A DNA stretch of 64,000 nucleotides, from NCBI GenBank assembly GCA_033762295.1, contig JANRLW010000070.1, positions 1 through 64,000 on the forward strand, read 5' to 3'. The first letter of the stretch is position 1, and every line of letters starts with the position of its first letter. The notes beneath the pieces are model-generated. The model made no database searches. It had not been told where the DNA came from and was given only the letters and a program-made list of their open reading frames with translations. Shown here piece after piece: positions 20,964 to 40,229 of the stretch. The translations under genes and the position numbers were made by a program. This DNA is from Capsulimonadales bacterium (lineage in GTDB: Bacteria > Armatimonadota > Armatimonadia > Armatimonadales > Armatimonadaceae).

Positions 20964-23024
20964 TCAGCCCAGATGGTCGGCCAGATAACGATGGTACAGT
21001 TCGCACCGGAACCGGATCGCGCCGTCCCGCTTGCGGACGATTACCCCGGCGGACATCAGGCGATCGAACGAAACCGTGTCGGTTACCGTCGCCGTGCCGT
21101 TCAAAACCTGGCGCACGAACGCCCGGACCGTGGGCAATTCCGTAATCCCCAGCATCAGTCGCTGCAGATGGTCGTGGAACGGCCCGTCGTCCCGTATGGC
21201 GTCCTGTAGCAGCGCGGCGCAGGTGAACGTACCGGTCGCGACGCTATCCAGAGCACGACGCGAGAGAAACGGCTGACCGGAGAGAAGCCCGTAGACCTGC
21301 TCCTCCTCGAACGACGACAGCGGGTTGCCGTAACGATGGTTCAGCAGGTGAAACTGTTCCGGATCGAAATCGACGAGTTCCAGCTTTCTGCCGACGTTAA
21401 ACGGCGACTGGTTCAGGTCCCGAATGAACAGGCGCGCTTCCGTCGCATAGGCGATGATCAGGGTGAGCCGGTCCCAGGGACCGTCGGGCCGGTTGGCACG
21501 GGAGTTGTGGAAGGAACGGATCAAACCGTAAAAATCGGAGGCGAATGTCGCCGGAAAGACCTTATCCGCTTCATCCAGGCACCAGACCAGCGGCGTGTCG
21601 GCCGAGTTTACCAGCGACTCCAGGAAATAGTTCAGATTTTCGTTGGGCGCGAGAAAGTCGTCCCATTCCTGTTCGAAGTCGTAACGAAACCCCTGCTGTT
21701 TGGCCATTGTGGCGGCCAGACCCCGATAGAAACGTTTCTCGTCGGCCAGGTAGGACGCATTCACCTGTTGGAAATCTGTCTGCAGAACGCGCGCGCCCGC
21801 GGCCCGCGCCTGCTGAGCCGCCCTCGCCAGCAGACTGGTCTTCCCGACCTGACGCGGCCCCGGAATCAGAATGATGCTTTCACGGGCGTCCACCGCGGCG
21901 GTCAACAGAGTGTCGCACGGACGGGAAATATAGAACGCAGAGTTCAGCGGAACCGCGCCCCCGACCGGTTCCAGACGGGTCGCCTCCACCGGACGCAGGG
22001 GACCGCGAATCGCCGAAACGATCTCCGCGACGATCCGGTAATCGTCCTCGGAGGAGTTCCGGACCAGCGTCGGCAGATCGTGCAGCCAGCGGGTGACCTC
22101 GTCGTCCGCGTCAGGCAGTTCCTCGGTAAGCCCGACCAGCAACGGGAGAATAGCCGGTCGGCCCGTGTCATCGAAAAACTCCCGGGCCTGCTCCAGTTCC
22201 CAGGGAAGCATCTCACTGCGGCGGCTTTCCGGTGAGACGACCGCAATCACCGCCTTTGCTGTTCGAATTCGCTCGCGCATCTCCTCGGCCCAGCCGGGCC
22301 GGAAGCACCGGTTGCGATCACGGAAGACGTGAAACCCCTGCTCCTCCAGAGAACGTTCGATAAAACGCAGTATCTCTTCGTCCCTTTTCCCGCCCCGACG
22401 ACAGAGCAGCACCACGGTCGGCGAATCGGATTCGGAAACAAGATCGGACGCATTGATGGAAGGATGGACCCCTCCCCAGTGCGCCGGAATGGTCCGACTG
22501 CCGATCCGCATTCCCGCTTCCTCCGTCACCAGGGTGAACAGAGTCAGTTCCAATCCATGTTTGGCGATACGCTGGCCGAGCGGGAAAAGGAGATTCCGCC
22601 AGTGATCGGACTGCCGAAGCCAGTTGGCATGCTGTTCCGAAAGCAGTATATGTCCGGCATCCCCCTGGTCCATGACGCGTTTGGCGGTATTGATTCCCTC
22701 GCCCACCACGTTCCGCTTCCCCGAAATATCGTTCAGGATATGCACCAGGCCGCTATGGAGGCCGATGCGGAGGGGGATGGCCCCGGCAATCCTCCGGGTC
22801 AATTCGATCGCACAGCGAACGGGCGCCGTGACGTCGTCCTGAAAGACGAGCGCCATTCCGTCTCCGGAGGGAACGGGAAGAACGCTTTCGGCCACCCGCG
22901 CCTCCACGAAAACGGGCAGTTGATCGACGGTTTCCGTCAGCAGCCCGAAGATGCGCGATTGCTCTTCCAGCGAAACCGTGCTGTAACCGACGATATCGAC
23001 GAACAGAATGTGGGCGATCCTCAT
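20964..23024 (-). CDS. Class III nucleotide cyclase - TIR - AAA_35 (STAND) ATPase fusion
   Basis: FVDIVGYS, GDG, LRIGLHSG and INTAKRV (cyclase); VFRD...SEMLPWELEQA (TIR); GGAVP, GPRQVGKTSL, LDEAD and SPFNVG (AAA_35). The start could lie further upstream, up to 23165. Confidence 0.85.
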   Translation of the reverse strand: MRIAHILFVDIVGYSTVSLEEQSRIFGLLTETVDQLPVFVEARVAESVLPVPSGDGMALVFQDDVTAPVRCAIELTRRIAGAIPLRIGLHSGLVHILNDISGKRNVVGEGINTAKRVMDQGDAGHILLSEQHANWLRQSDHWRNLLFPLGQRIAKHGLELTLFTLVTEEAGMRIGSRTIPAHWGGVHPSINASDLVSESDSPTVVLLCRRGGKRDEEILRFIERSLEEQGFHVFRDRNRCFRPGWAEEMRERIRTAKAVIAVVSPESRRSEMLPWELEQAREFFDDTGRPAILPLLVGLTEELPDADDEVTRWLHDLPTLVRNSSEDDYRIVAEIVSAIRGPLRPVEATRLEPVGGAVPLNSAFYISRPCDTLLTAAVDARESIILIPGPRQVGKTSLLARAAQQARAAGARVLQTDFQQVNASYLADEKRFYRGLAATMAKQQGFRYDFEQEWDDFLAPNENLNYFLESLVNSADTPLVWCLDEADKVFPATFASDFYGLIRSFHNSRANRPDGPWDRLTLIIAYATEARLFIRDLNQSPFNVGRKLELVDFDPEQFHLLNHRYGNPLSSFEEEQVYGLLSGQPFLSRRALDSVATGTFTCAALLQDAIRDDGPFHDHLQRLMLGITELPTVRAFVRQVLNGTATVTDTVSFDRLMSAGVIVRKRDGAIRFRCELYHRYLADHLG

Positions 23025-23030
23025 AGGTTT

Positions 23031-23078
23031 GGTCAATGGTTTGGTTAATGGTTGGGTTAATGGTTGGGTCAAGGATTG
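23031..23078. repeat. Imperfect 12-bp tandem repeat x4 between the STAND genes
   Basis: ggtcaatggttt / ggttaatggttg / ggttaatggttg / ggtcaaggattg. Confidence 0.85.
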
Positions 23079-23106
23079 GATGAAAGTTGGTGAATGCGGT
23101 GTTCTT

Positions 23107-26100
23107 CTACCGGGTCCCGGTCGGGCGAACCGCCGTCGCTCTCTCCGGATGGCCGGACGCTTCACGTCGAAGGACGAGAATCATCCGGCGATTGGGCCAG
23201 TCGGACGGGGCCGGGGGTCTGTTCGGCGCGTACTGTCCGGCCTGAAGCAGGCGCTCCCGTGCGGATTCCGGATTCTTCAGACGCGCCGCCGCCATGCCTC
23301 CGAAGGTCGCGCACCACGCTCGCTCCCAGTCCGACAGCGAATCCCACGCGCGCGAAGCGCGCAGCCGTTCATACAGGGCGGATGCCTCGGCGTACCGGCC
23401 TTCCCGGTATCGCCAGGCCAGCACCACCGAAAGCTCGGGCGCCGACCCGTCTCCCATGAGATAGAAGGCCAACTCCGCGGCGTGCTCCCGGGTCTCCCGC
23501 GAGACCGACGGTGTGAGCGACGCCAGTCGGAGCGTGGAGACCGCCGCTTCGCGAATATTCTCCGCGGGCGTCTGCGGAGACGCGCCCAACCATTCGGTTA
23601 CCAGTTGCGTCGCCCGGTCGCACAGAAACCGATACCCGCGTACGTCCCCTAACTCGAGGAGCAGTACCCCGCGTTCCGCCAGCAGATAGGTATTGCCGGA
23701 ACCGCCCAGAAGGAAGGCGGTACGGTTCAGGTCCTCCAGCGCGCCCGCCGCCGCCCCCTGCCGAATCAGAGCGTAAGCCCGATGTTCCAGCGCCCATCGG
23801 TCGATCGGGTCCGCGGGGTCCGCCTCCGTGCTGTTGAGCAACTGCGTCAAATGCCCAACCGCCCCGGCCCAGTCGCCGCGAGCCAGACATACCTTCGCCC
23901 GCAGTTGCAGGACGCGCGTCGGGGCCGTCACCGGGTTCGTCCGATACGTCAGCGAAGCCCGCTTCAGCCGGGCCCAGGCGGAATCGGTCTCCGCCGGGGT
24001 CGGCAGCTTCATATCCCTCTCTTTCCGGTCACGGTTGAAAGGGAGAACATGCGTCGTCGCCAGTACGGCGGATAGGTCTTGCGCCTGGGACAGAGTCAGG
24101 GAGGAGATCGGCGTATCCCAGCAGACGACCCCCAGCCACCCACCGGAAGCGACCGATCGCCCGTCGGGGCTGATCGCCAGCGTCACACAGGAGTTGATTC
24201 GCTTACGCGGATCGTCCGTCCGGAGGAGGGACAGTACACGGGCGTCCTTGCGAAGGCCCATCAGCATGCCGGAGTCGGCGTCCCAGAAGCGCACGACACC
24301 ATCCTTGTTGCCGGTTGCCACGAATTGACCGTCCGGGGAATAGGCGATTGACAGGATGGCGGTGCTGTCGCTGTCGCGGATCGGCGGGATGCTCCATCGT
24401 CCGGTTTGCAGGTCCCACAGGTAAACGGTATCGGCTTCGTTAAACCGGGTGAGAAGCCGTTGCCCGTCGGGGCTGAAATGCGCTTCGACCGGAGTATGCT
24501 CATGAGGAAGACGTCGCCATTCCTGGCCGTCGGCCACCCGATACAGGACGGCGTCCTGAGGTGCATCGTGATCATTTCCGATCGCGCCGAAGCTGAGGAG
24601 GTGGCGCCCGTCAGGCGAGAAGCGGAGACAACTGCCCGAGGTATTTTCCTGACTCCGGACGAGTGAGCCGGAGTCGTTCAGGGAGCGTCGCCGGAGGTCT
24701 CTGAGTTCCATTCGCCGGTCTTGGGACAGGAGGGCGAGATACTGCCCGTTCGGACTGATATCCAGGTCGACAATTCCGGCCGGCAGGCGCAGCGGAGTGT
24801 TCAAAGGACGTCGGGCACGCGGATCGACCGGAACGAGGGTCCCTTTATCGCCGGCGAGGTACAACGTACGGTGGTCGGCAAACCGGCAGCGACGGATGTT
24901 TTCGCCGCCGGGCAGGAGGAACCGACCGATGAGACGGCCTGACGGAACCTCATAGATCGCCACCCCCTCGGAGCGGGATTCGCTTCCCGTCCTGAGCGGC
25001 TCCGATAGAGGTGATCCGATCACCGTAACGTCCCGTTCGCTGCGGTACCTATCGAGAACGGCGACCAGTCGGCTGTCCGGACTGAAGCTGATGTGGTTCA
25101 GAGGGTAGAGATTGGACGCATTGAATGGCCGTGCGGACAACCAGGCCGTTTGCGCGATCCCGGTTCGGGCGTCGGTCAGCAGCATTCCCCCCTCACTCTT
25201 GATCAGAGCGATGAAATGGCTGTCCGGGCTGAAAACCGTTTGACGAACGAACATATCATGCCACATCGTCGTCAGTTGCCGGGCGGAGGACGGCGCGGTA
25301 TCCCAGAGCCGCACCCGGTTACCATCATCCACCGTGAGAGCGAAGCGACCGTCCGGGCTCAGGTCCGCCGTTTTGGGAGAAGCCGCTATGCGCAAGGGAG
25401 AAGCGATACGCTGACCGGTCCGGGGATTCCAGAGGGCGGCGGTGTTATCCTTGCTGGCGGTAAGGAGTCGGTCGTTATCCCGTGCCATGACCAGGGAGAC
25501 AAGCTGGGCGCCATGCGCATGGAAGGCCGTAATGAATCTGGCCTCAGCGCTGTTGCTACTAAGGGCATAGGTGAAGACGAGGCCGTTCATATTGGCGGCC
25601 AGAAGCAGTTCTTCGCCCGGTGCGAAGCAGGCCAGCGTGGTGTATTTTGTGTCGAGAAGGTGTTTTCCGTCGGGGTCTCTGGGAAACCGGACCTGTTCCT
25701 CCGCGCCGGGCGATGGCAGGGGAAGGAGGACGGTGCCGTACTCGGTAGCAAGGACGGCACGCCGGGCAGCGCGATCGAGGGCAACGGAATGAATCCCGCC
25801 CCAGACGGGAAGACGAGCGAAGGGGTCCGGGGAGGAGGCGGATCGACCGTCCGGCGGATCGAGTCGATAGAGGCAGAGAGAGTCCTGATTGTACGTTCGG
25901 GAGGGAAGCCGGACGGCGAGGAGTTGCCCGTCACGGCTGATCTCCGCCATGATCCGGGTGTCGGGGAGGGATTGCTCGAACACGATGCGCCGTTCCTCGG
26001 TGTCAAAGACAAGGAATTTATTGAGTTCCCGTTTATCCGAAGATATCAGGCGAAGGACGATCCGACGGCCCCGGTCGGAGAGGCGGTAGCCGTCCGGTTC

Positions 26101-28170
26101 CATCCCGGGAGGAAGCGGCACGAAGAAGGGCGGACCGACCGTACGGACATGTTCTCCGATGATGTCGAGTATTTGCGCCTGGAACCGACCGCCACGGGTT
26201 GTCCGAACGGTCAGCAGGCGATCCCGGTCCGCAGTGAAGGCCGCCACCCGGGGAAGGTCGTTCCGGTCGTCGTTCCGTTCCGCGAGCCGGGCGAGCGTGA
26301 ATCCGTCCGGATCGGGCGTCGGAAACCGCAGTTTGAAAGCCGGGGACCGATCGGAGTCGCCGGCGGAAGAAATCAGTCCGCCATCCCGGCTAAAGGCGAC
26401 AAACGGCGTATATCGGTCAACCGGCGTCGCCTGGAGGAGACGGGGCGACCGGTTCAACGCTTCCGTGATCTGGGTGCCATAGACCCGGCGTCGTTTCGGA
26501 TCCTTTTCCCGGTTCCAGGCGTCGGCGAAGAACGGCAGGGAGGCCAGATAGTCTCCGGAGTGAACGGCGGCCATCGCCGTGTTGACGTCGCGAGTAATGA
26601 CCTCCCATTCGGCGACCTGCTGGGATTGCTCGGCCCGTCGTCTCTGTCGGGCCTCGCTGATTCGCGCGGAGGAGGCGACCTGTTCCTGGCGTCGGGCCTC
26701 TCGGGCGGCCTTGTTGGCGCGTTGGCTGGCCTCCTCCGCCTGTCGCCTCTGCCGCTCGGCCATCCGTTTCTGTGTTTCGGCGACCCGTTTCTGCCCCTCG
26801 GCGATTTCGGTCTGCCGTCGAGCGTTATCCCGTTCCTCCTGGGCAATGAGCCGCTGTCGATCCGCTTCGCTCTTTTGGTTCTGGGCGATGGCCTTTTGTT
26901 GTTCGGCGATATTTTTCGCTTTCAGTGCCTCCGCCCGTTGCTGAAAAGCAAAAAATGCCAGTGCACCAAAAAGGAGGACCAGGGCGCTCAGGCCGAGCGC
27001 GGCCCGCTTTAACCCGGCGCGGTACGCGCTGCGCAGGCGGCGCTTCTCGGCGTCCGGACGGTTTTCGTCGATCCATTCCCGGTCGAAGACCCGACGATAG
27101 ATGCGGTTTCGGACACGAAGGCTACCCTGGTCCACGCGAACGATGCCGGACAGTTTCAGCAGTACGACCAGCGGGTTGGTTTCGTCATCGGGAACCTGCG
27201 ACCGTTCCTTCAAAAGGCGCTCATACAGCGCCAGAATCGCCGCCTTCTGCGCGTCGTCCGCCGGGTCGATCGATCCCGTCTTCCGGGTGAGCATCCGGTT
27301 GGCAACATCGGCCAGGTGGACGTTCCCCCGGCGCGCGGCGCGTTCGAAATACATCTCCTCGACGAGAGCGTCCACCATGCGGACAGTGCGAAGCGAGGTG
27401 TCCTCAGCGATGCGGGCGCAGAGAGATTGGGTAAGAAACGGGTGTCCGCCGGTCCAGTAGTAGACACGATCCAGCCAGGCGTCGCCCGCGCGACCGGCGC
27501 GATTCAGCCCTTCGCCGAGGGGAGCGATCTCCTGCCGGGTGAAGTCGCGCAGGTCGATCAACCGCCCGATATTGAACGGGGACAGGCGCGTGTCGCTGAC
27601 CAGATCCGCCGGCGCCGCGGAACCGACGAGGCAGAAGGTGAGATGACGGAGGGCGGGTTGAGAGACACGCCGGTTGTAGAGCGACCGCAGGGCTCCGAAA
27701 AACTCATCCCGGGAGAAGGAAAGGTTGAGAACGGAATCGATCTCGTCGAGAATCAGAACGATCGGGCCGTCGATGCGGGCCAGAGCGATCTCCTCCAGGG
27801 CGGAAAAGAGCCAGGAGACCGGCGTCTGCTCGGCGCGTTCCCGACGATGCTGAGTGAATTCGGCATGCAGACCGAGTTCGCGTCCGATCCGACTGAGCAG
27901 CGTCGCATACCACGCGGCCGAGGTGGCGTTCACTCCGCCGATCGCGCTGAGTTCGAGGTAGACCGTGCGAACGTTGCGCGCCTCCAGCTCCTGCCGAACG
28001 CGGACGCAAAGCGAGGACTTGCCCATCTGCCGCGTATTCAAAAGGTAACAGTACTCGCCGTCCAGCAGACCATGGAGCAGTTTCTCGTCGGAGTCTCTGA
28101 CCAGATAGGAGGGGGCGTCGGTGGGAAGTGTGCCTCCGATGCGGAAAAAAGTACGGTCGTGTGCGGACAT
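23107..28170 (-). CDS. AAA_35 STAND ATPase - TM helix - coiled coil - WD40 - TPR protein
   Basis: GGTL, RQMGKSSL, LDEID and SPFNIG; one TM segment; Q/E/R-rich coiled coil; many FSPDG / LWD repeats; TPR-like C-terminus. Confidence 0.9.
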   Translation of the reverse strand: MSAHDRTFFRIGGTLPTDAPSYLVRDSDEKLLHGLLDGEYCYLLNTRQMGKSSLCVRVRQELEARNVRTVYLELSAIGGVNATSAAWYATLLSRIGRELGLHAEFTQHRRERAEQTPVSWLFSALEEIALARIDGPIVLILDEIDSVLNLSFSRDEFFGALRSLYNRRVSQPALRHLTFCLVGSAAPADLVSDTRLSPFNIGRLIDLRDFTRQEIAPLGEGLNRAGRAGDAWLDRVYYWTGGHPFLTQSLCARIAEDTSLRTVRMVDALVEEMYFERAARRGNVHLADVANRMLTRKTGSIDPADDAQKAAILALYERLLKERSQVPDDETNPLVVLLKLSGIVRVDQGSLRVRNRIYRRVFDREWIDENRPDAEKRRLRSAYRAGLKRAALGLSALVLLFGALAFFAFQQRAEALKAKNIAEQQKAIAQNQKSEADRQRLIAQEERDNARRQTEIAEGQKRVAETQKRMAERQRRQAEEASQRANKAAREARRQEQVASSARISEARQRRRAEQSQQVAEWEVITRDVNTAMAAVHSGDYLASLPFFADAWNREKDPKRRRVYGTQITEALNRSPRLLQATPVDRYTPFVAFSRDGGLISSAGDSDRSPAFKLRFPTPDPDGFTLARLAERNDDRNDLPRVAAFTADRDRLLTVRTTRGGRFQAQILDIIGEHVRTVGPPFFVPLPPGMEPDGYRLSDRGRRIVLRLISSDKRELNKFLVFDTEERRIVFEQSLPDTRIMAEISRDGQLLAVRLPSRTYNQDSLCLYRLDPPDGRSASSPDPFARLPVWGGIHSVALDRAARRAVLATEYGTVLLPLPSPGAEEQVRFPRDPDGKHLLDTKYTTLACFAPGEELLLAANMNGLVFTYALSSNSAEARFITAFHAHGAQLVSLVMARDNDRLLTASKDNTAALWNPRTGQRIASPLRIAASPKTADLSPDGRFALTVDDGNRVRLWDTAPSSARQLTTMWHDMFVRQTVFSPDSHFIALIKSEGGMLLTDARTGIAQTAWLSARPFNASNLYPLNHISFSPDSRLVAVLDRYRSERDVTVIGSPLSEPLRTGSESRSEGVAIYEVPSGRLIGRFLLPGGENIRRCRFADHRTLYLAGDKGTLVPVDPRARRPLNTPLRLPAGIVDLDISPNGQYLALLSQDRRMELRDLRRRSLNDSGSLVRSQENTSGSCLRFSPDGRHLLSFGAIGNDHDAPQDAVLYRVADGQEWRRLPHEHTPVEAHFSPDGQRLLTRFNEADTVYLWDLQTGRWSIPPIRDSDSTAILSIAYSPDGQFVATGNKDGVVRFWDADSGMLMGLRKDARVLSLLRTDDPRKRINSCVTLAISPDGRSVASGGWLGVVCWDTPISSLTLSQAQDLSAVLATTHVLPFNRDRKERDMKLPTPAETDSAWARLKRASLTYRTNPVTAPTRVLQLRAKVCLARGDWAGAVGHLTQLLNSTEADPADPIDRWALEHRAYALIRQGAAAGALEDLNRTAFLLGGSGNTYLLAERGVLLLELGDVRGYRFLCDRATQLVTEWLGASPQTPAENIREAAVSTLRLASLTPSVSRETREHAAELAFYLMGDGSAPELSVVLAWRYREGRYAEASALYERLRASRAWDSLSDWERAWCATFGGMAAARLKNPESARERLLQAGQYAPNRPPAPSDWPNRRMILVLRREASGHPERATAVRPTGTR

Positions 28171-30468: not shown

Positions 30469-30678
30469 TCAGGCGAGACGGCGTTTTTCGACGATATCGA
30501 TCTGGACCACCCGCCCGTCCTGAATAATCAGTTGGACAGAGCCATGGCGGACCTTCTCAATCGCGGCTTTGATTTCCTCAATCGGGATCGGGTGACCGTT
30601 TTTTACCGTATCCGATAGATCCGTCGGAGGAGCGGGGGGGTTGTCACTGACCTGAGCGATCTTTCCGGTTCGGTACAT
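30469..30678 (-). CDS. yezD: YezD/OscA (DUF2292) small protein
   Basis: IKAAIEKVRHGSVQLIIQDGRVVQIDIVEKRRL; last gene of the ssu operon; alternative GTG start at 30699. Confidence 0.85.
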   Translation of the reverse strand: MYRTGKIAQVSDNPPAPPTDLSDTVKNGHPIPIEEIKAAIEKVRHGSVQLIIQDGRVVQIDIVEKRRLA

Positions 30679-30717
30679 GGCATCCAATCCCTTAATCACC
30701 GATTGATAATTAAGACT

Positions 30718-31500
30718 TTATATCACTGATGCTACGTTTATGTCAATCTGACGTGCATCTGTTTCCGGTACAGGCTTTTTTCGTCCAAGCAATTCGTCCA
30801 GGATATGCTCCTCGATCTTGGTGAACTCGATGGCGCTGTGGTTGCGGGGACGTGGAAGATCGACCGTTATCGTATCCACGATCCGCCCCGCATCCAGCAC
30901 GATCACACGGTCTGCAAGCGCAATCGCCTCCTCGACATCGTGTGTCACCAGAATGACGGTGAACCCCTCTTCAAGATAGAGTTCCTCGATCAATTGCTGC
31001 ATCTCACGCCGGGTCAGCGCATCCAGCGCTCCCAGTGGTTCATCAAGCAACAGGAGCCTTGGACCGCTTGCCAGAGCACGGGCAAGCGCCACGCGCTGAC
31101 GCTGTCCGCCCGAAAGAACGCCCGGCCAGTCCCCGGCGCGATCCTCCAGGCCGACATGCGATAATGCCCGCTGTACATGCTCGCCCGGCAACAATCCAAG
31201 CCCGATATTGTCGCGCACCCGTTGCCAGGGCAGGAGACGCGCCTCCTGAAACATCAGGCGTACATCGGGCGGAGTCCCGGCAAAGGTCTGACCATCGCGT
31301 CGAATCTGACCACGGGTCGGTGTATCGAGTCCGGCGGTCAGCCGGAGCAACGTGGATTTACCGCAGCCGCTCTTCCCGACGATGGCGACAAACTCCCCGG
31401 CCTCGACCGTGAGATCGATCCCTTTAAGGACGACCTTTGCTCCAAAAGATTTCTCCACCCCCTCGACGGTCAGGCGGGTGCCGCGCTCTTGCTGTCGCAT
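30718..31500 (-). CDS. ssuB: Aliphatic sulfonate ABC transporter ATPase
   Basis: [29 protein letters not shown] and [15 protein letters not shown]. Confidence 0.9.
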
Positions 31501-32360
31501 GTTGCCCTCTCCTTCCCCTCGGATCCCGGTGGCTGTGTCGCCTTTGCCCTCGTGTTTTGCTGACGTTCTGGCGGCGGTGTGGCCAGGTAATTCGCGTTCC
31601 AGGACAGCAGACGCCGTTCCAGCGCACGCGCAATCACATCGGCCAGTTTCCCCAGTAATGCATAGATCAGGGTTCCGACAACAACGATATCGGTCTGCAT
31701 AAACTCCCGCGCCGTCGTGGTCAGATAACCGATGCCCGCCTCCGCTGCCAGCGCTTCCGCCGCAATCAATGTCAGCCACATCGAGCCAAGCGAGAAACGC
31801 AGACCGACCAGGATAGAGGGCAGAGCGCCGGGAAAGATCACCAGACGGAACAATCGCCATCCGCGCAGACCATAAACCTCTGCCATCTCGCGCAGACCGG
31901 GATCGATCGAACGAATGCCATGGTAGGTGTTGAGATAGAGCGGGAAGAAAACCCCGAGCGCGATCAGAAAGACCTTAGTCTCCTCCCCGATGCCGAACCA
32001 GAGGATGACCAGGGGAATCATCGCCAGGTTGGGGATCGTGCGCAACATCTGCACCGTGCTATCGAGCAACGTGTAGGCGAGCCGTGACAGACCGGTGAGC
32101 AGACCAAGAGCAAAGCCAATGCTTCCTCCGATGAAAAGCCCGGTCAGCGCACGACCGGAGCTAACGGCGAGATGTTTCCAGAGATCCCCCGACTGGATCA
32201 AGGTCGACCCCGCCTTCAGGACAGCCGTTGGCGCGGGCAGGATCTTTGTCGGCAGAATGCCGGTGACGGAGAGAATATGCCAGAGCAGAAACAGCGTCAG
32301 AGGCAAGGCATAGGGCAATATGGCACCAGAAATCGCTCCGATTCGCCTGTTTATCTTCAC
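31470..32360 (-). CDS. ssuC: Aliphatic sulfonate ABC transporter permease
   Basis: [23 protein letters not shown] and [15 protein letters not shown]. Confidence 0.92.
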
Positions 32361-33394
32361 GGTCGAACGTTCTTTCTGTCAGCCGGAGCAAGAAGGGCAT
32401 ACTGCGCCGGGGTCAATGTCGCCTCGCGCACATCGATCTTTCGTGGCAGCAATCCGATCTTATAGAAGTTATCCGCCGAGGTCTGTTGCGCTGCGATTAT
32501 TTTTTCATCAATGGAACGAGCGCCCGTTCGAGAGCGCCGCTGCAAAAGAAACGTCAGCGTTTCCTTATCGACTCCCGTGTTCCGAGCAAGCAGATCGGCG
32601 GTTTCCTGCGGATGCTGGTAGGACCATTCGCTCGCCCGATCCACCTCCTCCAGAACGATCTTGATCAACTCCGGATGCTCCTCGGCGAACTTGCGCGAGG
32701 AGAGATAGAACGCTCCCGGCGTGTTGATTCCCACACGATTGGCGATGATCCGTGCCCCGCTCTGTTTTATCGCGACCGCGAGAAACGGGTCCCAGACGAC
32801 CCAGGCATCGATCTTCCCGGACTCGAATGCAACGCGTGCATCCGGTGGCGCAAGATAGAGCGGTTGTATGTCCGAGTAGGCGATTCCCGCCTTCTGCAGA
32901 TGCTGCAACAGCAGATTATGAGAGCCGGATGCCTTTTGAAAGGCGATCTTCTTCCCCTTCAAGTCCTGAACCGATCGTATCGGTGAGTTTTTGGGGACGA
33001 TGATCGCCTCACCATCCTCGGCATGCTCACCAAGGGGAATATTGGCAATATAGACAAGTGGGGTTCCGGCGGCCTGAGCGAACAGCGCCGGAGAGTCGCC
33101 GGTCGAGCCAATATCGATACTTCCGACTCCAAGCGCTTCAAGCAGAGGCAGTCCGGCAGTGAAATTGAGCCACTCGACGCTCACTCCTGCCGGTGCCAGA
33201 CGCTTCTCCAGGTCGCCACGTAGTTTCAGCAGATTGAGCGGGTCGGCACGCTGATGCCCGATTCGCAGGACGACATGCTTCCGGTTCGTGGCGGCAACAC
33301 CTGTCGCCGCTGTCTCCCCGGCGGGCCGGGAACAGCCGGAAAGACAGACGCAGACCCCTAACAGCACCAGAATAAACCCGCACATCCTGCTCAT
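32357..33394 (-). CDS. ssuA: Aliphatic sulfonate-binding lipoprotein
   Basis: Lipobox LSGC; LEALGVGSID, FAQAAG and DAWVVWDPF. Confidence 0.9.
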   Translation of the reverse strand: MSRMCGFILVLLGVCVCLSGCSRPAGETAATGVAATNRKHVVLRIGHQRADPLNLLKLRGDLEKRLAPAGVSVEWLNFTAGLPLLEALGVGSIDIGSTGDSPALFAQAAGTPLVYIANIPLGEHAEDGEAIIVPKNSPIRSVQDLKGKKIAFQKASGSHNLLLQHLQKAGIAYSDIQPLYLAPPDARVAFESGKIDAWVVWDPFLAVAIKQSGARIIANRVGINTPGAFYLSSRKFAEEHPELIKIVLEEVDRASEWSYQHPQETADLLARNTGVDKETLTFLLQRRSRTGARSIDEKIIAAQQTSADNFYKIGLLPRKIDVREATLTPAQYALLAPADRKNVRP

Positions 33395-33414: not shown

Positions 33415-34293
33415 TTAGTCTTCGATAAACCAGCCAGCGGCGCTCGGATACTTCACCCGGCTGTAGACGACACCGTTGGGATTGGGATTCGGCACCAGAT
33501 TCTGATAGGACGCAAGCGACCCATCGGTGATGGAGGGGTTCGGGTCGCCGGTGTAGGACGGCGTCGAGGATCGGACCCACTTGGCATGTCCATCGCCGAA
33601 CGCGTAGTTGCCGCCGTCACTATGGCGGCTGCGCCCGGTGAAATACTCCGCGCTACAGATCACGGCATCCGGGATCTGGGCCAGAACGACGGGATCATCG
33701 ATGCCATCGGTCCAGACACAGCGGCCACGCGCCTCCGTCAACAGGATTACCTGCGCCGGGTACTGTGGCTTGGCCAGGGTGGCGGAAGGAATCCGTCGTT
33801 CGGCGGCGACATTGAGCGCCATGGTCCCAATCAGGTATCGATTGACCGAATAGGAGAGCGAGGGGCGATAGGGGTTGCCTGCGGTCGAGTTGCCCGCGGT
33901 CCGCCCGGACTTATCGAAGGCGGGGCAGACAAAGATGCTTTTGCCGCCAGCCTGGGCGACGCTCGATGCCATCCCCGCCTTGATATAGGGATCGACGGTA
34001 TAGAGCCAGGTAACGTTGCCGATGCCGGGCGTCGCGCCCTCCGGCGTCGAGTTGGCCAGGGGATAGGTCTCATCGTAATCCTGTGCATACATCAGAAAAC
34101 CGAGACCAAGCTGCTTCAGGTTTGAGAGGCAGGTCGTCTGTCGTGCTTTGTCCCTTGCCTGGGCGAACACTGGGAAAAGAATCGCTGCCAGTATGGCGAT
34201 TATGGCGATAACAACGAGCAGCTCGATCAGCGTAAACCCCGCTCCGGGGTGGAAACCGGATATGATCTTCCGATACGTGGGAGATGGTTTCAT
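33415..34293 (-). CDS. Prepilin-type N-terminal cleavage / DUF1559 / H-X9-DG protein
   Basis: [29 protein letters not shown] and [17 protein letters not shown]. Confidence 0.9.
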
Positions 34294-34347: not shown

Positions 34348-35424
34348 CTAACGTTCCTGGACAAGGGGCAGAAGTGGGAATACCAGTTCCGCGAACCGGT
34401 ACGCCTCTTCAAGGTGGGGATAGCCTGACAGAATAAAACTGTCGATGCCGAGGTCCGCGTACTCGCGCATCCGTTCGGCGACGGTCGCCGGATCGCCGAC
34501 CAGGGCGGTGCCAACGCCGGGGCGCACCAGACCCAGACCGGCCCACAAGTTGGGACTGACCTCAAGGTGCGGGCCGCGTTTGCCTCCGTGCAGAGCCTGC
34601 ATTCGACGTTGCCCTTCCGAGTTATCCCGTGAAAGCCAGTCCTGTGCGCGGGCGATCGTCTGATCGTCGAGACGCGAGATCAGTCGATCCGCCGCTTCCC
34701 AGGCCTCGTCACAGGTCTCACGCACAATGACATGCAGGCGGATACCAAAACGCACCGTTCGCCCGAACTCCGCCGCCTTCTCACGAACGCGATCTAATTT
34801 CTCTTTGACCTGCGCGGGCGGTTCCCCCCAGGTGAGATAGACATCGCTATGCCTGGCTCCGACCCGGATGCCCTCATCGGAGGAGCCGCCGAACCAGAGC
34901 GGCGGATAGGGCTTTTGTACGGTCGGGAACGGGTTACTCCCCCCCTCGATCCGGAAGAAGTCCCCCGCGAAGTCCGCTTTGCCCTCCTCCAAAAGAGAAC
35001 GCCAGACGGTCAGGAACTCATCGGTCACCTGATAGCGGCGATTGTCCTCGACAAAGATCCCTTCCGCCGCCATCCGGTCCTGCGCTCCGCTCCCCGTCAC
35101 GATATTGATCAGCAGACGTCCTCCGGTCATCCGGTCAAACGTCGCCGCCATACGCGCCGCCAGAGCGGGCTGCATGATCGCCGGGCGGATCGCCACCAAA
35201 AAGCGTAACCGCTGGGTCAATGCCGAGAGCCCGGATGCCAGAACCCACCCCTCCGGGCAGCCGACACCGGTCGGGAGCAATGCGCCATAGTAGCCAAGGG
35301 AATCCAGAGCCGTCGCCAGCGTCTTGAGGTAACCAAAGTCGGTCTGCCGACGCAGGACAGGTGAGCCAAGATAATGCTCATCGCCCGGAGTCGGAAAAAA
35401 CCAGAGAACGCGAATTCCACTCAT
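34348..35424 (-). CDS. ssuD: FMNH2-dependent alkanesulfonate monooxygenase (LLM family)
   Basis: LLPTG, FLVAIRP, YLTWGEPP, PNLWAGLGLVR and SGYPHLEEAYRFAE. Confidence 0.9.
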   Translation of the reverse strand: MSGIRVLWFFPTPGDEHYLGSPVLRRQTDFGYLKTLATALDSLGYYGALLPTGVGCPEGWVLASGLSALTQRLRFLVAIRPAIMQPALAARMAATFDRMTGGRLLINIVTGSGAQDRMAAEGIFVEDNRRYQVTDEFLTVWRSLLEEGKADFAGDFFRIEGGSNPFPTVQKPYPPLWFGGSSDEGIRVGARHSDVYLTWGEPPAQVKEKLDRVREKAAEFGRTVRFGIRLHVIVRETCDEAWEAADRLISRLDDQTIARAQDWLSRDNSEGQRRMQALHGGKRGPHLEVSPNLWAGLGLVRPGVGTALVGDPATVAERMREYADLGIDSFILSGYPHLEEAYRFAELVFPLLPLVQER

Positions 35425-35456: not shown

Positions 35457-35552
35457 CAAAACGACGAAAGGCTGGAAACCCGGCCAGAAACCGCCCGATT
35501 CCTCCGGCAGTCTCCAGCAGAAAGGTTTCCAGCCTCCTGTTGACAGGTCAGC
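35457..35552 (-). promoter_or_regulatory. Leader attenuator copy 1: conserved 21-nt hairpin (35532-35552) overlapping a long terminator
   Basis: Minus strand GCTGACCTGTCAACAGGAGGC; arms GAGGCTGGAAACC / GGTTTCCAGCCTT, followed by a T-rich tail. Confidence 0.75.
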
Positions 35553-35574: not shown

Positions 35575-35592
35575 ACCGATTAAATCGGTCGA
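35575..35592. promoter_or_regulatory. Palindromic operator-like box (Rrf2/CymR-like)
   Basis: ACCGATT-A-AATCGGT just downstream of the leftward promoter. Confidence 0.55.
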
Positions 35593-35620
35593 ATTTTACA
35601 ACAATATCTCATTCATCCAG

Positions 35621-35808: not shown

Positions 35809-35880
35809 GCTGACCCGTTAACGGGAGGCCAGAGCTTTATGAACGACATTTCGTTCGTAAAGCTCTGGCCTCGTTTTTTT
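35809..35880 (+). promoter_or_regulatory. Leader attenuator copy 2: 21-nt hairpin (35809-35829) + 22-bp intrinsic terminator
   Basis: GCTGACCCGTTAACGGGAGGC; GAGGCCAGAGCTTTATGAACGA-catt-TCGTTCGTAAAGCTCTGGCCTC-GTTTTTTT. Confidence 0.8.
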
Positions 35881-35908
35881 GGCGTGTCGCTTCGACAGGA
35901 GAAAGACC

Positions 35909-37114
35909 ATGAACGGACTCGATGTTTTCTGGTATTTACCGACACAGGGTGATGAACGATATCTCGGCACCTCACACGGACTGCGAAAGCCGACGCCCGC
36001 CTATCTGCAACAGATCACGCAGGCGGTCGATTCCCTAGGCTACGGGGGCATGTTGCTCGGCACGGGCACCAAACTCGACCCGTTGATCGTGGCCACTTCC
36101 CTGATCCATGTCACAAAACGCCTCAAGTTTCTGGTCGCGGCCCGCCCCTCCATCATGACGCCTGCACTCTGGGCACGTATGGCGGCCAGTTTCGATCAGT
36201 TGTCGCAGGGACGGATTCTGCTCAATATCGTCACCGGCGGCAGCACCGAACAGTTGGAGAGCGATGGGATCTTCGCCGATCATGAGGAGCGCTATGAGAT
36301 CACCGATGAGTTCCTGCATATCTGGCGCTCCCTGATGCTCGGGGAAACGGTGAATTTCGAGGGCAAACATCTCCGCATCAAAAACGGCCAGCAGCAGCTA
36401 CAGCCGATCCAGAAGCCCTATCCTCCGCTCTACTTCGGCGGTTCCTCCCCTGCGGCGCTCGATGTCGCCGCCCGCCATATCGATGTCTACCTCTCCTGGG
36501 GCGAACCGCCGGCGATGGTCCGGGAAAAGATCGAGGAGGTGCGCCGCCGTGCCGCTACCCATGGACGCACTCTTCGCTTTGGTATCCGTCTCCATATCAT
36601 CGCCCGTGAGACCGATGCCGAAGCCTGGGCCGTCGCCGAGAAACTGATCCAGCATGTCAGCGATGAGTCGATCCAGCGAACGCTTAAATCCTATGAGCGT
36701 TCTGAGTCCGAGGGACAGAAACGGATGGCGTCGCTTCACAACGGTCGGCGCGACAGTCTGGAAATCTACCCCAACCTCTGGGCGGGTGTCGGCCTTGCCC
36801 GTGGCGGCGCGGGAACCGCTCTGGTCGGATCGGGCCAATCCATTGCCCGTCTGATGGGCGAGTATCAGGAGCTTGGCATCGACACCTTTGTTCTTTCCGG
36901 CTACCCCTCGCTTGAGGAAGCCTATCACTGCGCCGAGTATGTTTTCCCCCATCTGAAACAGCCCGTTCCCGCGACCTCGCCCTTTAACTCAGGTACGGAA
37001 GGGCCACAGATGGCACGCTGGCGCACCGCCCACGATGTTTCCGAATCGGCAGTCCAGTCTCCGCTAACGAAGGTCGCCGCACGAAATGAACCGGCGCTTT
37101 CAGGAAGGAACTGA
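35909..37114 (+). CDS. ssuD: FMNH2-dependent alkanesulfonate monooxygenase, second copy
   Basis: VFWYLPTQGDERYLG, YLSWGEPP, YPNLWAGVGL and SGYPSLEEAY; RBS AGGAGA. Confidence 0.9.
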   Translation: MNGLDVFWYLPTQGDERYLGTSHGLRKPTPAYLQQITQAVDSLGYGGMLLGTGTKLDPLIVATSLIHVTKRLKFLVAARPSIMTPALWARMAASFDQLSQGRILLNIVTGGSTEQLESDGIFADHEERYEITDEFLHIWRSLMLGETVNFEGKHLRIKNGQQQLQPIQKPYPPLYFGGSSPAALDVAARHIDVYLSWGEPPAMVREKIEEVRRRAATHGRTLRFGIRLHIIARETDAEAWAVAEKLIQHVSDESIQRTLKSYERSESEGQKRMASLHNGRRDSLEIYPNLWAGVGLARGGAGTALVGSGQSIARLMGEYQELGIDTFVLSGYPSLEEAYHCAEYVFPHLKQPVPATSPFNSGTEGPQMARWRTAHDVSESAVQSPLTKVAARNEPALSGRN

Positions 37115-37116
37115 TC

Positions 37117-38184
37117 ATGCGAGGTACACCCCTTCCTCTCCTGTCGCTCACGCTATGGATACTGACCATCACCGGTTGTACGACAACGCCGACCGGGAGC
37201 GGCACAACAACAGCACAGGCTCCAGTGAAGCTACGGATCGGTTATGGCAAAGGCGGCAACTTCAATATCATGCGCCTGCGCGGCACACTGGAGAAGCGGC
37301 TTGCCGGACAGAATGTGAAGGTCGAATGGATCAACTTCCCGATGGGGCCGCAGGCGATGGAGGCGATCGGTACACGTAGCCTGGAGATCGGCAGCACCGC
37401 CGCCACCCCTCCGCTCTTTGCGCAGGCGGCGGGAATCGACTTCGTCTATGCCGCCAACACTCCTCCTGGCAAATCCGGCAGTGGCGGCGCAATCATCGTC
37501 CCGATCGATTCGCCGCTTCGCTCCCTTCGTGATCTCAAAGGGAAACGAGTCGCTTTTCAGCCCGGCGCGGTCTGGCAGTACCTGCTGATCAAGGCGCTGG
37601 AACGTGAGGGAATGCAGTATTCCGATATCATTGCGGTCAAGATGCCGCCCGCCGATGCCACCGCCGCCTTTCATAGCGGTTCCATCGACGCCTGGGTTCA
37701 GGGTGAGCCCTACCTCACGCTGGTGCAGCAGAAGGGTGAGGGGCGCATTCTGGTCAGTACAAAGGACATCCCGACCTCCGGTGGCTTTATTCTCACACCA
37801 CGCACCTTCGCCGCCGAACACCCGGAACTGATCCAGGTGACGCTCGATGAACTGCGAAAGACAGGCGATTGGGCGCGGCAGCACCCGCATGAGGCAGCCA
37901 CCATGACCGCGCAGTCCGGCGGGTTAGACGTGCCCACCCTCGAACAGATGATCCGCCAGCAGGAGAACACCGAACTGCGCCCGGTCGATGCCAGCGTCAT
38001 TGCGCTTCAACAGGAGCAGGCCGACTATCTGACCCGTCTCAAGATCCTACCCCGGAAGATTGCGGTGCAGGATGCCGTGCTCTCCGCAGACCAGTACGCC
38101 CGTATTCTGCCGCCTCCCGCATCCCATCAGGAGGCGCGTGCGATACAGACCACTTCCACGATTCATCAGACCCGCGAAAGGTAG
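37117..38184 (+). CDS. SsuA-type sulfonate/sulfate-ester binding lipoprotein
   Basis: Lipobox ITGC; FAQAAG, DLKGKRVA and IDAW. Confidence 0.85.
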   Translation: MRGTPLPLLSLTLWILTITGCTTTPTGSGTTTAQAPVKLRIGYGKGGNFNIMRLRGTLEKRLAGQNVKVEWINFPMGPQAMEAIGTRSLEIGSTAATPPLFAQAAGIDFVYAANTPPGKSGSGGAIIVPIDSPLRSLRDLKGKRVAFQPGAVWQYLLIKALEREGMQYSDIIAVKMPPADATAAFHSGSIDAWVQGEPYLTLVQQKGEGRILVSTKDIPTSGGFILTPRTFAAEHPELIQVTLDELRKTGDWARQHPHEAATMTAQSGGLDVPTLEQMIRQQENTELRPVDASVIALQQEQADYLTRLKILPRKIAVQDAVLSADQYARILPPPASHQEARAIQTTSTIHQTRER

Positions 38185-38191
38185 ATTTTCC

Positions 38192-39142
38192 ATGTCCACG
38201 CAAACTTTAGACGTGCCCGTCGCTTCACGGAACGCCGCTCATCTGACAATCTCTCCGGTGACGCCGGTCATTGGCGCGGAGGTGTCCGGCATCGACCTGC
38301 GCCAACCGCTCGATGACTTCACCATCGACCAGCTTAAAAATGCCCTGCATCAATGGAAGGTCCTGTTTTTCCGCGATCAGCCGATCAGCGATCAGGACCA
38401 GTTGCGCTTCGGTCGCTACTTCGGCCCGCTGACACCGGCGCACCCGATCGCCGAGGGACTGCCAGAGCATCCGGAGATCTGGGAGCGGTCGGCATCGGAG
38501 TACAAGCGCCATCGCCCTGATGTCTCCGTCGTGACGGCGCGTCCGCCCCGTGACTACAAGGGCTGGCATATCGATATCACCTTTGTCGCAAACCCCAACA
38601 AGTACTCGATTCTACGTGGCGTCGAGATCCCGGCCTATGGCGGCGATACGCTCTGGAGCAATCTGGTTGCCGCCTATGAGGGACTATCCCCGAAGATCAA
38701 GGAATTGATCGACGACCTGCAAGCGGTGCACGGCACAAGCAGTTATGATCGCGGAAGCGGCGACAAACCGCGCAAGGGACCGTTCGTCTCCCTGCACCCA
38801 CTGGTTCGCGTGCATCCGGAGACGCGGGAGAAAGCGCTCTTCTTCAATCCGGGAACGACAACCCATATCATCGGACTGCGCGAGCGTGAGAGCCAGGCGA
38901 TCCTCGACCTGCTTGCGGAGGAGGTGACGCGCCCGGAATATCAGGTTCGGTTCCACTGGTCCCCGAATGCAATCGCCTTCTGGGATAACCAGGTGACCGC
39001 CCATGCCGGTCCGATCGACTATGCCCACTTCACCGCGACGCGCACCGTGCGACGTATCACGGTGGCGGGTGACCTGCCGGAAGGACCGGACGGTTTCCGT
39101 TCCCGGCCGATTGAGGGCGAGCTTTTCGGAATTATCGGGTAA
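38192..39142 (+). CDS. tauD: TauD/TfdA-family dioxygenase (taurine or alkylsulfate)
   Basis: IGAEVSGIDL, WHIDITF, GGDTLW, HPLVRVHPET and WDNQVTAH. Confidence 0.88.
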   Translation: MSTQTLDVPVASRNAAHLTISPVTPVIGAEVSGIDLRQPLDDFTIDQLKNALHQWKVLFFRDQPISDQDQLRFGRYFGPLTPAHPIAEGLPEHPEIWERSASEYKRHRPDVSVVTARPPRDYKGWHIDITFVANPNKYSILRGVEIPAYGGDTLWSNLVAAYEGLSPKIKELIDDLQAVHGTSSYDRGSGDKPRKGPFVSLHPLVRVHPETREKALFFNPGTTTHIIGLRERESQAILDLLAEEVTRPEYQVRFHWSPNAIAFWDNQVTAHAGPIDYAHFTATRTVRRITVAGDLPEGPDGFRSRPIEGELFGIIG

Positions 39143-39200
39143 CACGGAAAGAGCGGTCCTATCGTTTCGGTGGGGCCATCTCGAAAGGAAATTTCACCGC

Positions 39201-40229
39201 ATGGCAGGAATCGTTCCGACTGTTCCACTGGGTAAATCCGGCCTAAAAGTCAGTAACCTTTGCCTTGGCTGTATGAATTTCGGGGAGTCTACGAGTGAGG
39301 AGGACTCGCTGGAAATACTGCGTCAGGCGCATGAAACCGGCGTCACCTTCTGGGATACCGCCAATGTCTACAGCAATGGCGGCAGTGAGGCCATTCTCGG
39401 CAAAGCCTTTGAACAATTCGGCTTTCGGGATGAGATCATTCTTGCTACCAAGGTCAACGGTGCGATGGGTCCCGGTGCCAATGACCGCGGGCTTTCGCGT
39501 CGGCATATCTTAAAAGCCGTCGAGGACAGCCTGCGTCGTCTGAAGACCGACTATATCGACCTCTACCAGATGCATCGCTATGACCCGACTGTGCCTCTGG
39601 ATGAGACCCTGGAAACGCTCCATCTGCTTATCCAGCAGGGCAAGATCCGCTACTATGGCACCAGCACCTTTGCCTCATGGCAGATGGCGGATGCGCTCTG
39701 GCGGGCGCGGCTCAAGGGATGGAACGAGGCAGTGAGCGAGCAGGCCCCGTACAATATCCTCGACCGACGCATCGAAAACGACCGGGCCGGGTTCCTGCGC
39801 CAGTACGGTTGGGGTCTGATTCCCTGGTCACCGCTCGCCGGGGGACAGCTTACCGGCAAGTACGGCCAGATTCGCCCGGATAACCTGCCGGAGGGCTCCC
39901 GTATCCAGCGCAACGACCGCTGGCGCGAACGGACCAACTCCACCGCCGCTGAGGCATCCCTCGCCTTTACCGCGCTCGCACAGGAGCATGGCTACGATCC
40001 CTCTGTCGCCGCCACTGCCTGGGTCCGTCAGCAGGACATCGTCACCGCGCCGATTGTCGGCCCGCGCACGCTGGAGCAGTTTACAGGCCTTCTGCCCGCC
40101 GCGAATCTGGTCCTGCCCGCAACCTTCCTGAGCGCCGTCGATGAGATCGTTCCACCGGGAACTGCCGTCGCCCACTTCCTGAACAACGCCGGATGGCAGA
40201 TCGGTCGCCTCTCCGGCCTGGACAAATAG
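39201..40229 (+). CDS. Aldo/keto reductase
   Basis: LCLGCMNFG, DTANVY, SLRRLKTDYIDLYQMH and WSPLAGG. Confidence 0.92.
   Translation: MAGIVPTVPLGKSGLKVSNLCLGCMNFGESTSEEDSLEILRQAHETGVTFWDTANVYSNGGSEAILGKAFEQFGFRDEIILATKVNGAMGPGANDRGLSRRHILKAVEDSLRRLKTDYIDLYQMHRYDPTVPLDETLETLHLLIQQGKIRYYGTSTFASWQMADALWRARLKGWNEAVSEQAPYNILDRRIENDRAGFLRQYGWGLIPWSPLAGGQLTGKYGQIRPDNLPEGSRIQRNDRWRERTNSTAAEASLAFTALAQEHGYDPSVAATAWVRQQDIVTAPIVGPRTLEQFTGLLPAANLVLPATFLSAVDEIVPPGTAVAHFLNNAGWQIGRLSGLDK

Follow-up and report, generated by a model that had tools for sequence, protein, structure and literature searches.

Protein-dependent antitermination is a well-known class of gene regulation. In the BglG, SacY and LicT systems, the target hairpin (ribonucleic antiterminator, RAT) shares its 3' nucleotides with the 5' arm of a terminator, and binding of the protein stabilises the hairpin and blocks termination; bglG itself sits behind its own conditional terminator, which results in positive autoregulation. 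In the hut operon of Bacillus subtilis, the regulator gene comes first and is followed by a conditional terminator that is overcome by binding of HutP to the RNA. TRAP and PyrR are small oligomeric RNA-binding proteins that choose between a terminator and an alternative structure in biosynthetic leaders. Here, we describe a 21-nucleotide (nt) RNA hairpin and the DUF2292 protein YezD (OscA), neither of which is among the known members of this class, in a stretch of 64,000 nt from Capsulimonadales bacterium (assembly GCA_033762295.1, contig JANRLW010000070.1, positions 1-64,000 of the forward strand). This stretch is referred to as the window and all coordinates are given in it; the assembly as a whole comprises 5.16 Mb in 132 contigs. 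From sequence comparison we infer, with a probability of roughly 55%, that YezD is the trans-acting partner of the hairpin and a new kind of RNA-binding antiterminator.

Within the DUF2292 family, OscA of Pseudomonas corrugata is presented in the relevant passages of PMC2996968 (after Viti 2009) as a small protein of unknown function that is a positive factor in the response to sulfur starvation. According to the same passages, oscA and sbp form one transcription unit that is induced by chromate and by sulfur starvation (Viti et al. 2009 via PMC2996968), and the Shewanella homologue SO4651 is up-regulated (PMC2996968). An earlier note on this DNA had started from the link between DUF2292 and sulfur-starvation loci. 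OscA and SO4651 share with YezD the family name DUF2292 and are small proteins that are encoded directly upstream of sulfate-uptake genes and required for the starvation response; they differ in that those passages propose no mechanism. PMC7921472 names a DUF2292 gene among differentially expressed genes. In the literature that was searched, mostly at the level of abstracts, on DUF2292/YezD/OscA and on antitermination together with sulfur starvation, neither the hairpin nor a mechanism was described.

The hairpin and its overlap with terminators

The pattern GCTGACC-N(4-14)-GGAGGC occurs three times in the window as compared to 0.04 expected occurrences, and none of 100 shuffles reached three. 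All three sites have the form GCTGACC-N8-GGAGGC and are the only copies in the genome, namely copy 1 (GCUGACCUGUCAACAGGAGGC, 35532-35552, minus strand), copy 2 (GCUGACCCGUUAACGGGAGGC, 35809-35829, plus strand) and copy 3 (GCUGACCCGUCAUCGGGAGGC, 40323-40343, plus strand). An IUPAC pattern search over 301 genomes of the phylum was too unspecific, and a covariance model (R1), built from the window copies aligned with copies of relatives, was used instead. Hits of R1 were counted at E<=0.01 unless stated otherwise; its E-values are rough, and it misses variant hairpins. When the genome was scanned with R1, copy 1 scored 34.9 bits and copies 2 and 3 scored 36.1 bits each, while the best other match reached 21.1 bits.

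The refined 21-nt consensus reads G1 C2 U3 G4 A5 C6 Y7 N8 G9, a 4-nt loop, and C14 N15 R16 G17 A18 G19 G20 C21, and its fold, (((..((((....)))).))), contains a GA/A internal loop. In an alignment of 19 distinct sequences (A1), 99.2% of the cells are paired, and the pairs 7-16 and 8-15 alternate between C-G, U-A and G-C; double changes are found in 16 cells versus 5.0 in shuffles, with none of 500 shuffles reaching 16. A second alignment of 46 distinct cross-phylum sequences (A4) is paired in 99.7% of the cells, with compensatory change at four of the seven pairs and double changes in 35 cells versus 7.7 in shuffles (0 of 500 reaching this number); A4 was fitted to the model and leans towards structure. 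Judged by this covariation, the hairpin is a genuine RNA structure. The letters of the lower stem are nearly invariant despite being paired, which suggests that they are read out directly.

At gathering threshold, Rfam 15 returned a single tRNA and nothing else for the whole window, and for the leaders at E<=10 only microRNA models far under their own thresholds. Variant hairpins were seen in Planctomycetota, with GCCGAC and 5-6-nt loops, and in Lachnospiraceae, with ACUGAC...GAGGU, in which the pair G1-C21 is turned into A-U. At some loci hairpins stand in tandem about 34-46 nt apart (L107 = G325:C292, L148, L166, L104); in G325/L148, the tandem pair is found on the strand opposite to yezD and about 400 nt away from it.

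All three leaders of the window begin, as their hexamers show, at a near-consensus sigma-70-like promoter. A hexamer scan identified P1 (35621-35649, minus strand, TTGACA-17-TATACT) and P2 (35686-35714, plus strand, TTGACA-17-CATAAT), each matching in 11 of 12 positions; these sites are divergent and serve copies 1 and 2, respectively. P3 (40239-40267, plus strand, TTGACA-17-TATAAC) was recognised by eye and fails the scan's rule of a T at position 6. The promoter-like sites are located about 55-95 nt upstream of the hairpins, and each hairpin runs directly into an intrinsic terminator. Terminator 1 (35458-35535, minus strand) has a U-rich tail and a 5' arm that starts at hairpin position 18, terminator 2 (35825-35882, plus strand) a 20-bp stem, a T7 tail and a 5' arm from position 17, and terminator 3 (40340-40387, plus strand) a 5' arm from position 18. 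The final 4-5 nt of the hairpin are therefore the first nucleotides of the terminator stem in all three copies.

When the RNA is folded alone, all three leaders are predicted to form the terminator at minimum energy and to leave the lower stem of the hairpin open. Forcing the full hairpin raises the energy by 5.4, 6.8 and 11.7 kcal/mol and strips the 3-5 terminator base pairs nearest to the U-tract. The leaders thus combine the two hallmarks of an attenuator, an intrinsic terminator in the 5' leader and a mutually exclusive structure upstream of it, and on the predicted folds this overlap fits antitermination. Beyond the window, an overlapping terminator is present at 50 of 93 regex-defined copies, including records from Chloroflexota, Methylomirabilota, Acidobacteriota and Firmicutes; these copies were drawn from all fetched loci, and some of them are chance matches in coding DNA.

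Further elements are located between promoter and hairpin. Leader 1 contains ATTCGACCGATTTAATCGG (35576-35594, minus strand) with the perfect palindrome CCGATT-T-AATCGG, leader 3 contains ATTCGTCGATCAATTAAATCAG (40291-40312, plus strand), and the leader of a relative (G013, locus L108) contains ATTCGACCAATTTACTC. These boxes may represent a further conserved element of the leaders, or an operator; compared with the AT-rich box upstream of yezD that is described below, the CGAT..AATTAAAT boxes in leaders 1 and 3 are only loosely similar. Leader 1 also carries a 10-codon open reading frame (ORF; 35580-35612, minus strand, MRYCCKIRPI) with two adjacent Cys codons and its stop inside the palindrome. 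Polycysteine leader ORFs are the topic of a preprint (10.1101/834739). Upstream of the hairpin, no ATG is found in leader 3 or in the G013 leader, so that the Cys ORF of leader 1 may be due to chance. Ribosome-mediated attenuation by a leader peptide was rejected as a general mechanism on the same grounds, and it is also disfavoured by the distance between stop codon and hairpin behind yezD, which ranges from about 9 to 121 nt.

Co-occurrence and adjacency of yezD and the hairpin

DUF2292 was detected in 31 and an R1 hit in 30 of 71 genomes from the window's own order. Both were present in 28 genomes and neither in 38, with three genomes having DUF2292 only and two the hairpin only. Inside six genera (g7, g2, g10, g15, g14 and g6), the presence and absence of hairpin and DUF2292 switch jointly. 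As to the three genomes with DUF2292 only, the match in G024 is truncated (22 bits), and G316 and G328 carry a weak R1 match directly behind the DUF2292 gene (E 0.47 and 0.64). Among 141 genomes of Chloroflexota, the phylum of a Dehalococcoidia metagenome-assembled genome (MAG), two contain DUF2292, and the only R1 hits of at least 30 bits (34.6 and 36.6) were obtained in the same two; six other genomes gave R1 hits of 23.5-24.9 bits, which is near noise level. In 141 genomes of the phylum of Moorella, DUF2292 is present in 25 and an R1 hit in 15, and 12 genomes have both, as compared to about 2.7 expected by chance (13 DUF2292 only, 3 hairpin only, 113 neither). Hairpin and DUF2292 therefore co-vary genome by genome in three independent samples, and the co-occurrence check that the earlier note had proposed gave a strongly positive result.

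The two elements are also neighbours. The own order provided 34 DUF2292 matches, one of which is at a contig end. In 27 of the 33 evaluable genes, a same-strand hairpin follows the DUF2292 domain at 15-93 nt, with 24 of these hairpins reaching E<=0.01; the six exceptions include the window. In a cross-phylum set of 79 DUF2292 loci from public genomes with flanks of 2.5 kb, R1 hits were found at 39 loci, 31 of them within -12 to +150 nt relative to the stop codon. The record titles of the loci name Armatimonadota (the best matches), Planctomycetota, Dehalococcoidia/Chloroflexi, Methylomirabilota/NC10, Candidatus Sulfotelmatobacter, Nitrospinota, a "Deltaproteobacteria" MAG, Lachnospiraceae, Ruminococcus, Clostridia and Moorella. 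Thus, the pair of yezD and hairpin recurs under at least seven taxon labels, before sulfur genes, and the earlier note was correct in mentioning similar GCYGACC...GGAGGC sequences near DUF2292 genes of other phyla. A tblastn search of YezD against plasmids gave no match.

In two of these loci, L194 (about 2632-2656, a Clostridia MAG) and L163 (about 2347-2368, a Ruminococcus flavefaciens MAG), the DUF2292 gene ends with the UGA that is part of CUGAC in the hairpin. At such loci, the hairpin must be unfolded by a ribosome that terminates there, an arrangement that would allow the nascent protein of these Firmicutes to load in cis. In two Lachnospiraceae loci (L131, L151), no hairpin is seen, and a conserved element with a tRNA-like T-arm (GGTTCGAGTCCGCC) is located between DUF2292 and a gene for a NifB-like radical S-adenosylmethionine (SAM) protein.

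In most genomes, the hairpin is part of the 3' region of yezD, sometimes including the stop codon itself, and some copies have no terminator. It could therefore also serve in processing or stability, e.g. as an RNase site or as a protector of 3' ends, and shape the yezD transcript and the sulfur mRNAs without a dedicated binder. We regard this as scarcely probable. Leader copies that stand alone at a distance from yezD, as all three of the window do, overlap terminators in fixed register, and strict co-occurrence with one small protein is unexpected for a generic RNase site.

The coupling of yezD and hairpin across genomes and their position before sulfur genes instead suggest that YezD probably binds the hairpin and permits read-through. 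In such an antitermination mechanism, the leader RNA alone would prefer the terminator. A YezD dimer would bind and lock the full hairpin with its lower stem and GA/A internal loop, which would strip the 3-5 terminator base pairs nearest to the U-tract, and RNA polymerase would read on into the ssu, tau and DUF1559 genes. In most relatives, yezD would be transcribed first, with the hairpin right behind its stop codon, and YezD would gate what follows. In the window, read-through at copy 1 would yield more YezD, since yezD closes the operon behind this copy. The positive-feedback loop proposed in the earlier note is in keeping with this topology; as a general feature it does not hold, since yezD is located upstream of the hairpin in most relatives.

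When compared to the described systems, the proposed switch would work like that of BglG, SacY and LicT, without membership in that family being implied: the 3' part of the target hairpin overlaps the 5' arm of the terminator, and yezD sits behind copy 1 as bglG sits behind its own terminator. YezD, however, lacks CAT and PRD domains, the hairpin measures 21 nt and has another consensus, no link to the phosphotransferase system is evident, and the regulon concerns sulfur. The order of regulator gene and hairpin in 27 of the 33 relatives is that of HutP, whereas YezD has no HutP domain (PF10055 only) and its hairpin is single, with a GA/A internal loop and no UAG repeats; moreover, HutP is a histidine-activated hexamer and YezD a predicted dimer, and yezD is last, not first, in the operon of the window. 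TRAP and PyrR promote termination when bound, while the geometry described here implies that binding prevents it. As to ANTAR regulators, no ANTAR match was obtained in the Pfam scan of YezD, and the hairpin is single with a 4-nt loop and not one of paired hexaloop hairpins.

Structure of YezD and alternative readings

The yezD gene of the window (30469-30678, minus strand) starts with ATG and encodes 69 amino acids (aa) ending in DIVEKRRLA. The open frame extends to 30699, and 76 aa would result if the alternative GTG start at that position were used; the ATG is preceded at a distance of 9 nt by the Shine-Dalgarno-like site AAGGGA (30688-30693). Residues 33-68 match positions 2-37 of the 37 positions of the profile PF10055 (DUF2292) with an E-value of 6.4e-15 and 54.9 bits (cut-off 22), and nothing else was found in Pfam at E<=0.01. 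In a scan of the whole assembly, YezD (54.2 bits) is the sole DUF2292 match, and the genome of E. coli, scanned as a control, has none. As is characteristic of the family, it is a small stand-alone protein encoded together with sulfur-assimilation genes, here at the end of an ssu-like operon. Searching 1.84 billion representatives with a profile gave 5,016 family members at E<=0.001.

The AlphaFold2 (AF2) model, based on 22 aligned relatives, has a mean predicted local distance difference test (pLDDT) score of 73.7 and comprises a disordered N-terminus, a helix (33-42) and two strands (46-53 and 56-64). A homodimer was predicted with a score of 0.78 versus 0.01 for the best control, with at least 96% of the contacts agreeing between runs and a partner pLDDT of at least 89. 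Among proteins of solved structure, this mark was attained by 20 of 30 same-chain pairs and by 1 of 23 single chains; the run for YezD used a custom alignment, so that these calibration counts hold only roughly. The prediction supports that YezD pairs as a homodimer, and tandem fusions with two DUF2292 domains in one chain of 95-131 aa, as carried by 31 of the top 150 representatives, fit a dimeric working unit. The predicted interface is formed by the first strand and the helix (residues 31-57). The C-terminal motif of the protein is nearly invariant across phyla, and its invariant residues Q59, K65, R67 and L68 are located outside this interface.

A small dimer can read a hairpin of this size, as is known from the MS2 and PP7 coat proteins, in which the beta-sheet of the dimer recognises a hairpin of about 20 nt with an unpaired stem purine and a 4-nt loop. 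This is a functional analogy only: a PDB sequence search with YezD gave 0 hits, and neither this search nor Foldseek or VIA-align pointed to homology. In addition, MS2 represses translation and has no role in termination, unlike what is proposed here for YezD.

The predicted symmetric homodimer would also be in line with a DNA-binding protein, and palindromes are present at the promoters. In a sister family, TTTACTA-N9-TAGTAAA surrounds the -35 box of the yezD promoter; TTTACTA-TTGACAAAC-TAGTAAA was seen about 30-80 nt upstream of yezD at L038, L039, L086, L093, L103, L105 and L150, and L051, L120 and L167 carry TTTACTAGTAAA instead. By its position, this palindrome resembles an operator at which a transcription factor would cover the -35 box, and in that family it could deliver the sulfur signal via a transcription factor. 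YezD might itself be a small dimeric regulator of the AbrB/MazE type acting on promoter-near palindromes, including CCGATTTAATCGG in leader 1, with the hairpin as an unrelated element of the same regulon; the top Foldseek rows for the AF2 model are AbrB and MazE N-domains. This is very unlikely in our view. The Foldseek rows are non-significant (E 1.6-2.4) and carry no weight, and a TTACTAGTAA-like match within two mismatches is found at only 7 of the 79 cross-phylum loci, with the clear palindromes all in Armatimonadota records. The palindrome is thus confined to one clade, whereas the RNA hairpin follows the protein with its nearly invariant C-terminal motif across phyla. YezD was therefore rejected as the binder of the promoter palindrome, and a DNA-binding role would not account for the hairpin that follows the stop codon of 27 of 33 yezD genes.

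Several observations count against YezD as an antiterminator that binds the hairpin. On the side of the protein, Foldseek gave no match for the AF2 model at E<=0.001 and a wide VIA-align structure comparison no convincing fold (best Z 2.9), the net charge of the folded part is only about +1 by our own count on the sequence, and the predicted symmetric dimer is not obviously a match for a single asymmetric hairpin. On the side of the RNA, no recognisable terminator follows 43 of the 93 regex-defined copies, notably in Planctomycetota and in genus g7, where the hairpin is located 27-40 nt ahead of the next start codon; antitermination can thus not be the sole output. The coupling has exceptions, too. 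A hairpin without a DUF2292 match was found in G013, which is 90% complete and has the full layout of promoter, hairpin and terminator, in G324 (69% complete; hit at the start of a contig), and in G567 (35.6 bits), G499 and G531 from the phylum of Moorella. Conversely, 13 of the 25 DUF2292 genomes of that phylum have no R1 hit, and neither have 40 of the 79 cross-phylum loci in their 2.5-kb flanks, mostly those of Planctomycetota and Lachnospiraceae, some of which show variant hairpins by eye. The related genomes in the co-occurrence counts are not independent of each other. Finally, yezD of the window is located about 4.8 kb downstream of copy 1, its nearest hairpin, in the same operon, so that the link rests here on operon membership and co-occurrence.

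That no RNA-binding fold was recognised, the five genomes with a hairpin and no DUF2292 match, and the many DUF2292 loci without a strong hairpin hit would also be in line with a hairpin that is read by a small ligand, i.e. a minimal riboswitch, or by another widespread protein. YezD would then be a co-regulated sulfur-starvation protein with another job, e.g. in sulfate or sulfonate uptake, and would travel with the hairpin as both belong to one module. Very small hairpins can act as parts of riboswitches, as in guanidine-II. We consider this reading unlikely. The loop and the upper stem are variable, which leaves the GA/A internal loop as the sole possible pocket, while the letters of the lower stem are conserved in identity, beyond what pairing demands, and no Rfam family matches. 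The motif also did not turn out to be common in the absence of DUF2292, the outcome that the earlier note had named as speaking against its proposal: no hairpin of at least 30 bits was found in the 139 DUF2292-free Chloroflexota genomes, and hairpins without DUF2292 were found at E<=0.01 in only 2 of the 40 DUF2292-free genomes of the own order and in three genomes of the phylum of Moorella. Furthermore, it is the upstream neighbour of the hairpin that is constant, whereas the downstream genes, where the target of a riboswitch would be expected, vary.

Genes behind the hairpins and the sulfur regulon

The operon behind copy 1 consists of minus-strand genes that overlap or are separated by short spacers. 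It is opened by a luciferase-like monooxygenase (ssuD-like, 34348-35424, PF00296, 3.5e-70), followed by a prepilin-type protein with N_methyl and DUF1559 matches in Pfam (33415-34293), an NMT1-type periplasmic binding protein (ssuA-like, 32357-33394, PF09084 and PF13379), a permease (ssuC-like, 31470-32360, PF00528) and an ATPase (ssuB-like, 30718-31500, PF00005, 3.1e-33) of an ATP-binding cassette transporter, and yezD. The description of a protein of about 70 aa that closes an ssuD-DUF1559-ssuACB operon was therefore accurate, and in line with the statement that the island encodes no other regulator, Pfam recognises none among the genes between 30.4 and 41.3 kb. The AT-rich box CCGATTGATAATTAAGA, which the earlier note had assigned to yezD as its own, is indeed located at 30699-30715, where it lies with the AAGGGA site in the 39-nt spacer between ssuB and yezD (30679-30717, minus strand) and overlaps the alternative GTG start. 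A promoter-like hexamer scan of the spacer gave no match, nothing marked the box as a control element of yezD or as more than spacer, and it was rejected as a promoter of yezD.

Copy 2 precedes a second sulfur operon (35909-40229, plus strand) with genes for a luciferase-like monooxygenase, an NMT1 binding protein, a TauD-family dioxygenase and an aldo/keto reductase, and copy 3 another N_methyl and DUF1559 gene (40400-41266, plus strand). Further downstream (41.3-51.4 kb), five of ten scanned ORFs have no Pfam match. Unrelated to the sulfur island, two large adjoining genes at 20964-28170 (minus strand) encode a TIR+AAA_35 protein of 733 aa and a protein of 1687 aa with AAA_35 and WD40 repeats; from its domains, this pair looks like a STAND-NTPase-like, defence-system-like locus.

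Among 37 credible ORFs behind hairpins that were scanned with Pfam, 19 encode N_methyl and DUF1559 proteins, six NMT1 binding proteins, four Porin_O_P porins, three NifB-like radical-SAM proteins, two luciferase-like monooxygenases, two sulfite reductases, two other solute-binding proteins (SBP_bac_11 and PBP_like_2), one a CysK-like protein and one a TonB-receptor plug. In Armatimonadota, no other type of gene follows the hairpin as often as those for N_methyl and DUF1559 proteins, one of which is also found behind it at a Lacipirellulaceae locus. On this genomic arrangement, the DUF1559 prepilin-type family, which is large and has no assigned function, is placed under putative control of the sulfur regulon.

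The downstream genes, among them genes for a sulfate-binding protein and for anion porins, differ between genomes, and the unit of yezD and hairpin is constant. In Moorella thermoacetica DSM 21394, a 30-kb sulfur island (G342:C3:10500-43000, L221/L222) combines five hairpins with three DUF2292 matches, of which the third is weak (26 bits). Its hairpins precede genes for ATP sulfurylase, adenosine 5'-phosphosulfate (APS) kinase and a sulfate transporter, an ssu-like transporter with cysteine synthase, NifH-like and CysK-like genes, two unknown ORFs, and a second DUF2292 gene with NifB-like and nitrogenase-D/K-like genes. In this island, a nitrogenase-like set (NifH/D/K/B-like) adjoins cysteine synthase genes. 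As a cultured organism that carries both yezD and the hairpin, M. thermoacetica is suited to testing the proposed mechanism.

A wider reading, for and against which the odds appear to us to be even, is that DUF2292/YezD/OscA is a new and widespread family (about 5,000 clusters at 50% identity) of dimeric RNA-binding antiterminators that, together with the 21-nt hairpin, would act as the chief control after transcription initiation in the sulfur-starvation regulons of at least seven bacterial taxon groups. These regulons would comprise sulfate assimilation, the use of sulfonates and taurine, nitrogenase-like sulfur-salvage genes and DUF1559 pseudopilin-like genes.

According to the passages of PMC2996968 that concern it, OscA has been tied to sulfur starvation and chromate resistance since 2009 as a protein of unknown function. 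If YezD indeed acts on the hairpin as proposed, a new protein family would join the short list of RNA-binding antiterminators, and a new RNA family would be available for Rfam. With a domain of about 40 residues, a 21-nt RNA and one terminator, the pair would also be a very compact protein/RNA switch for synthetic biology. Sulfur regulons would become predictable from sequence in little-studied phyla, namely in Armatimonadota, Chloroflexota, Methylomirabilota, Planctomycetota and acetogens, and both the DUF1559 genes and the nitrogenase-like sulfur-salvage genes would be placed under sulfur control.

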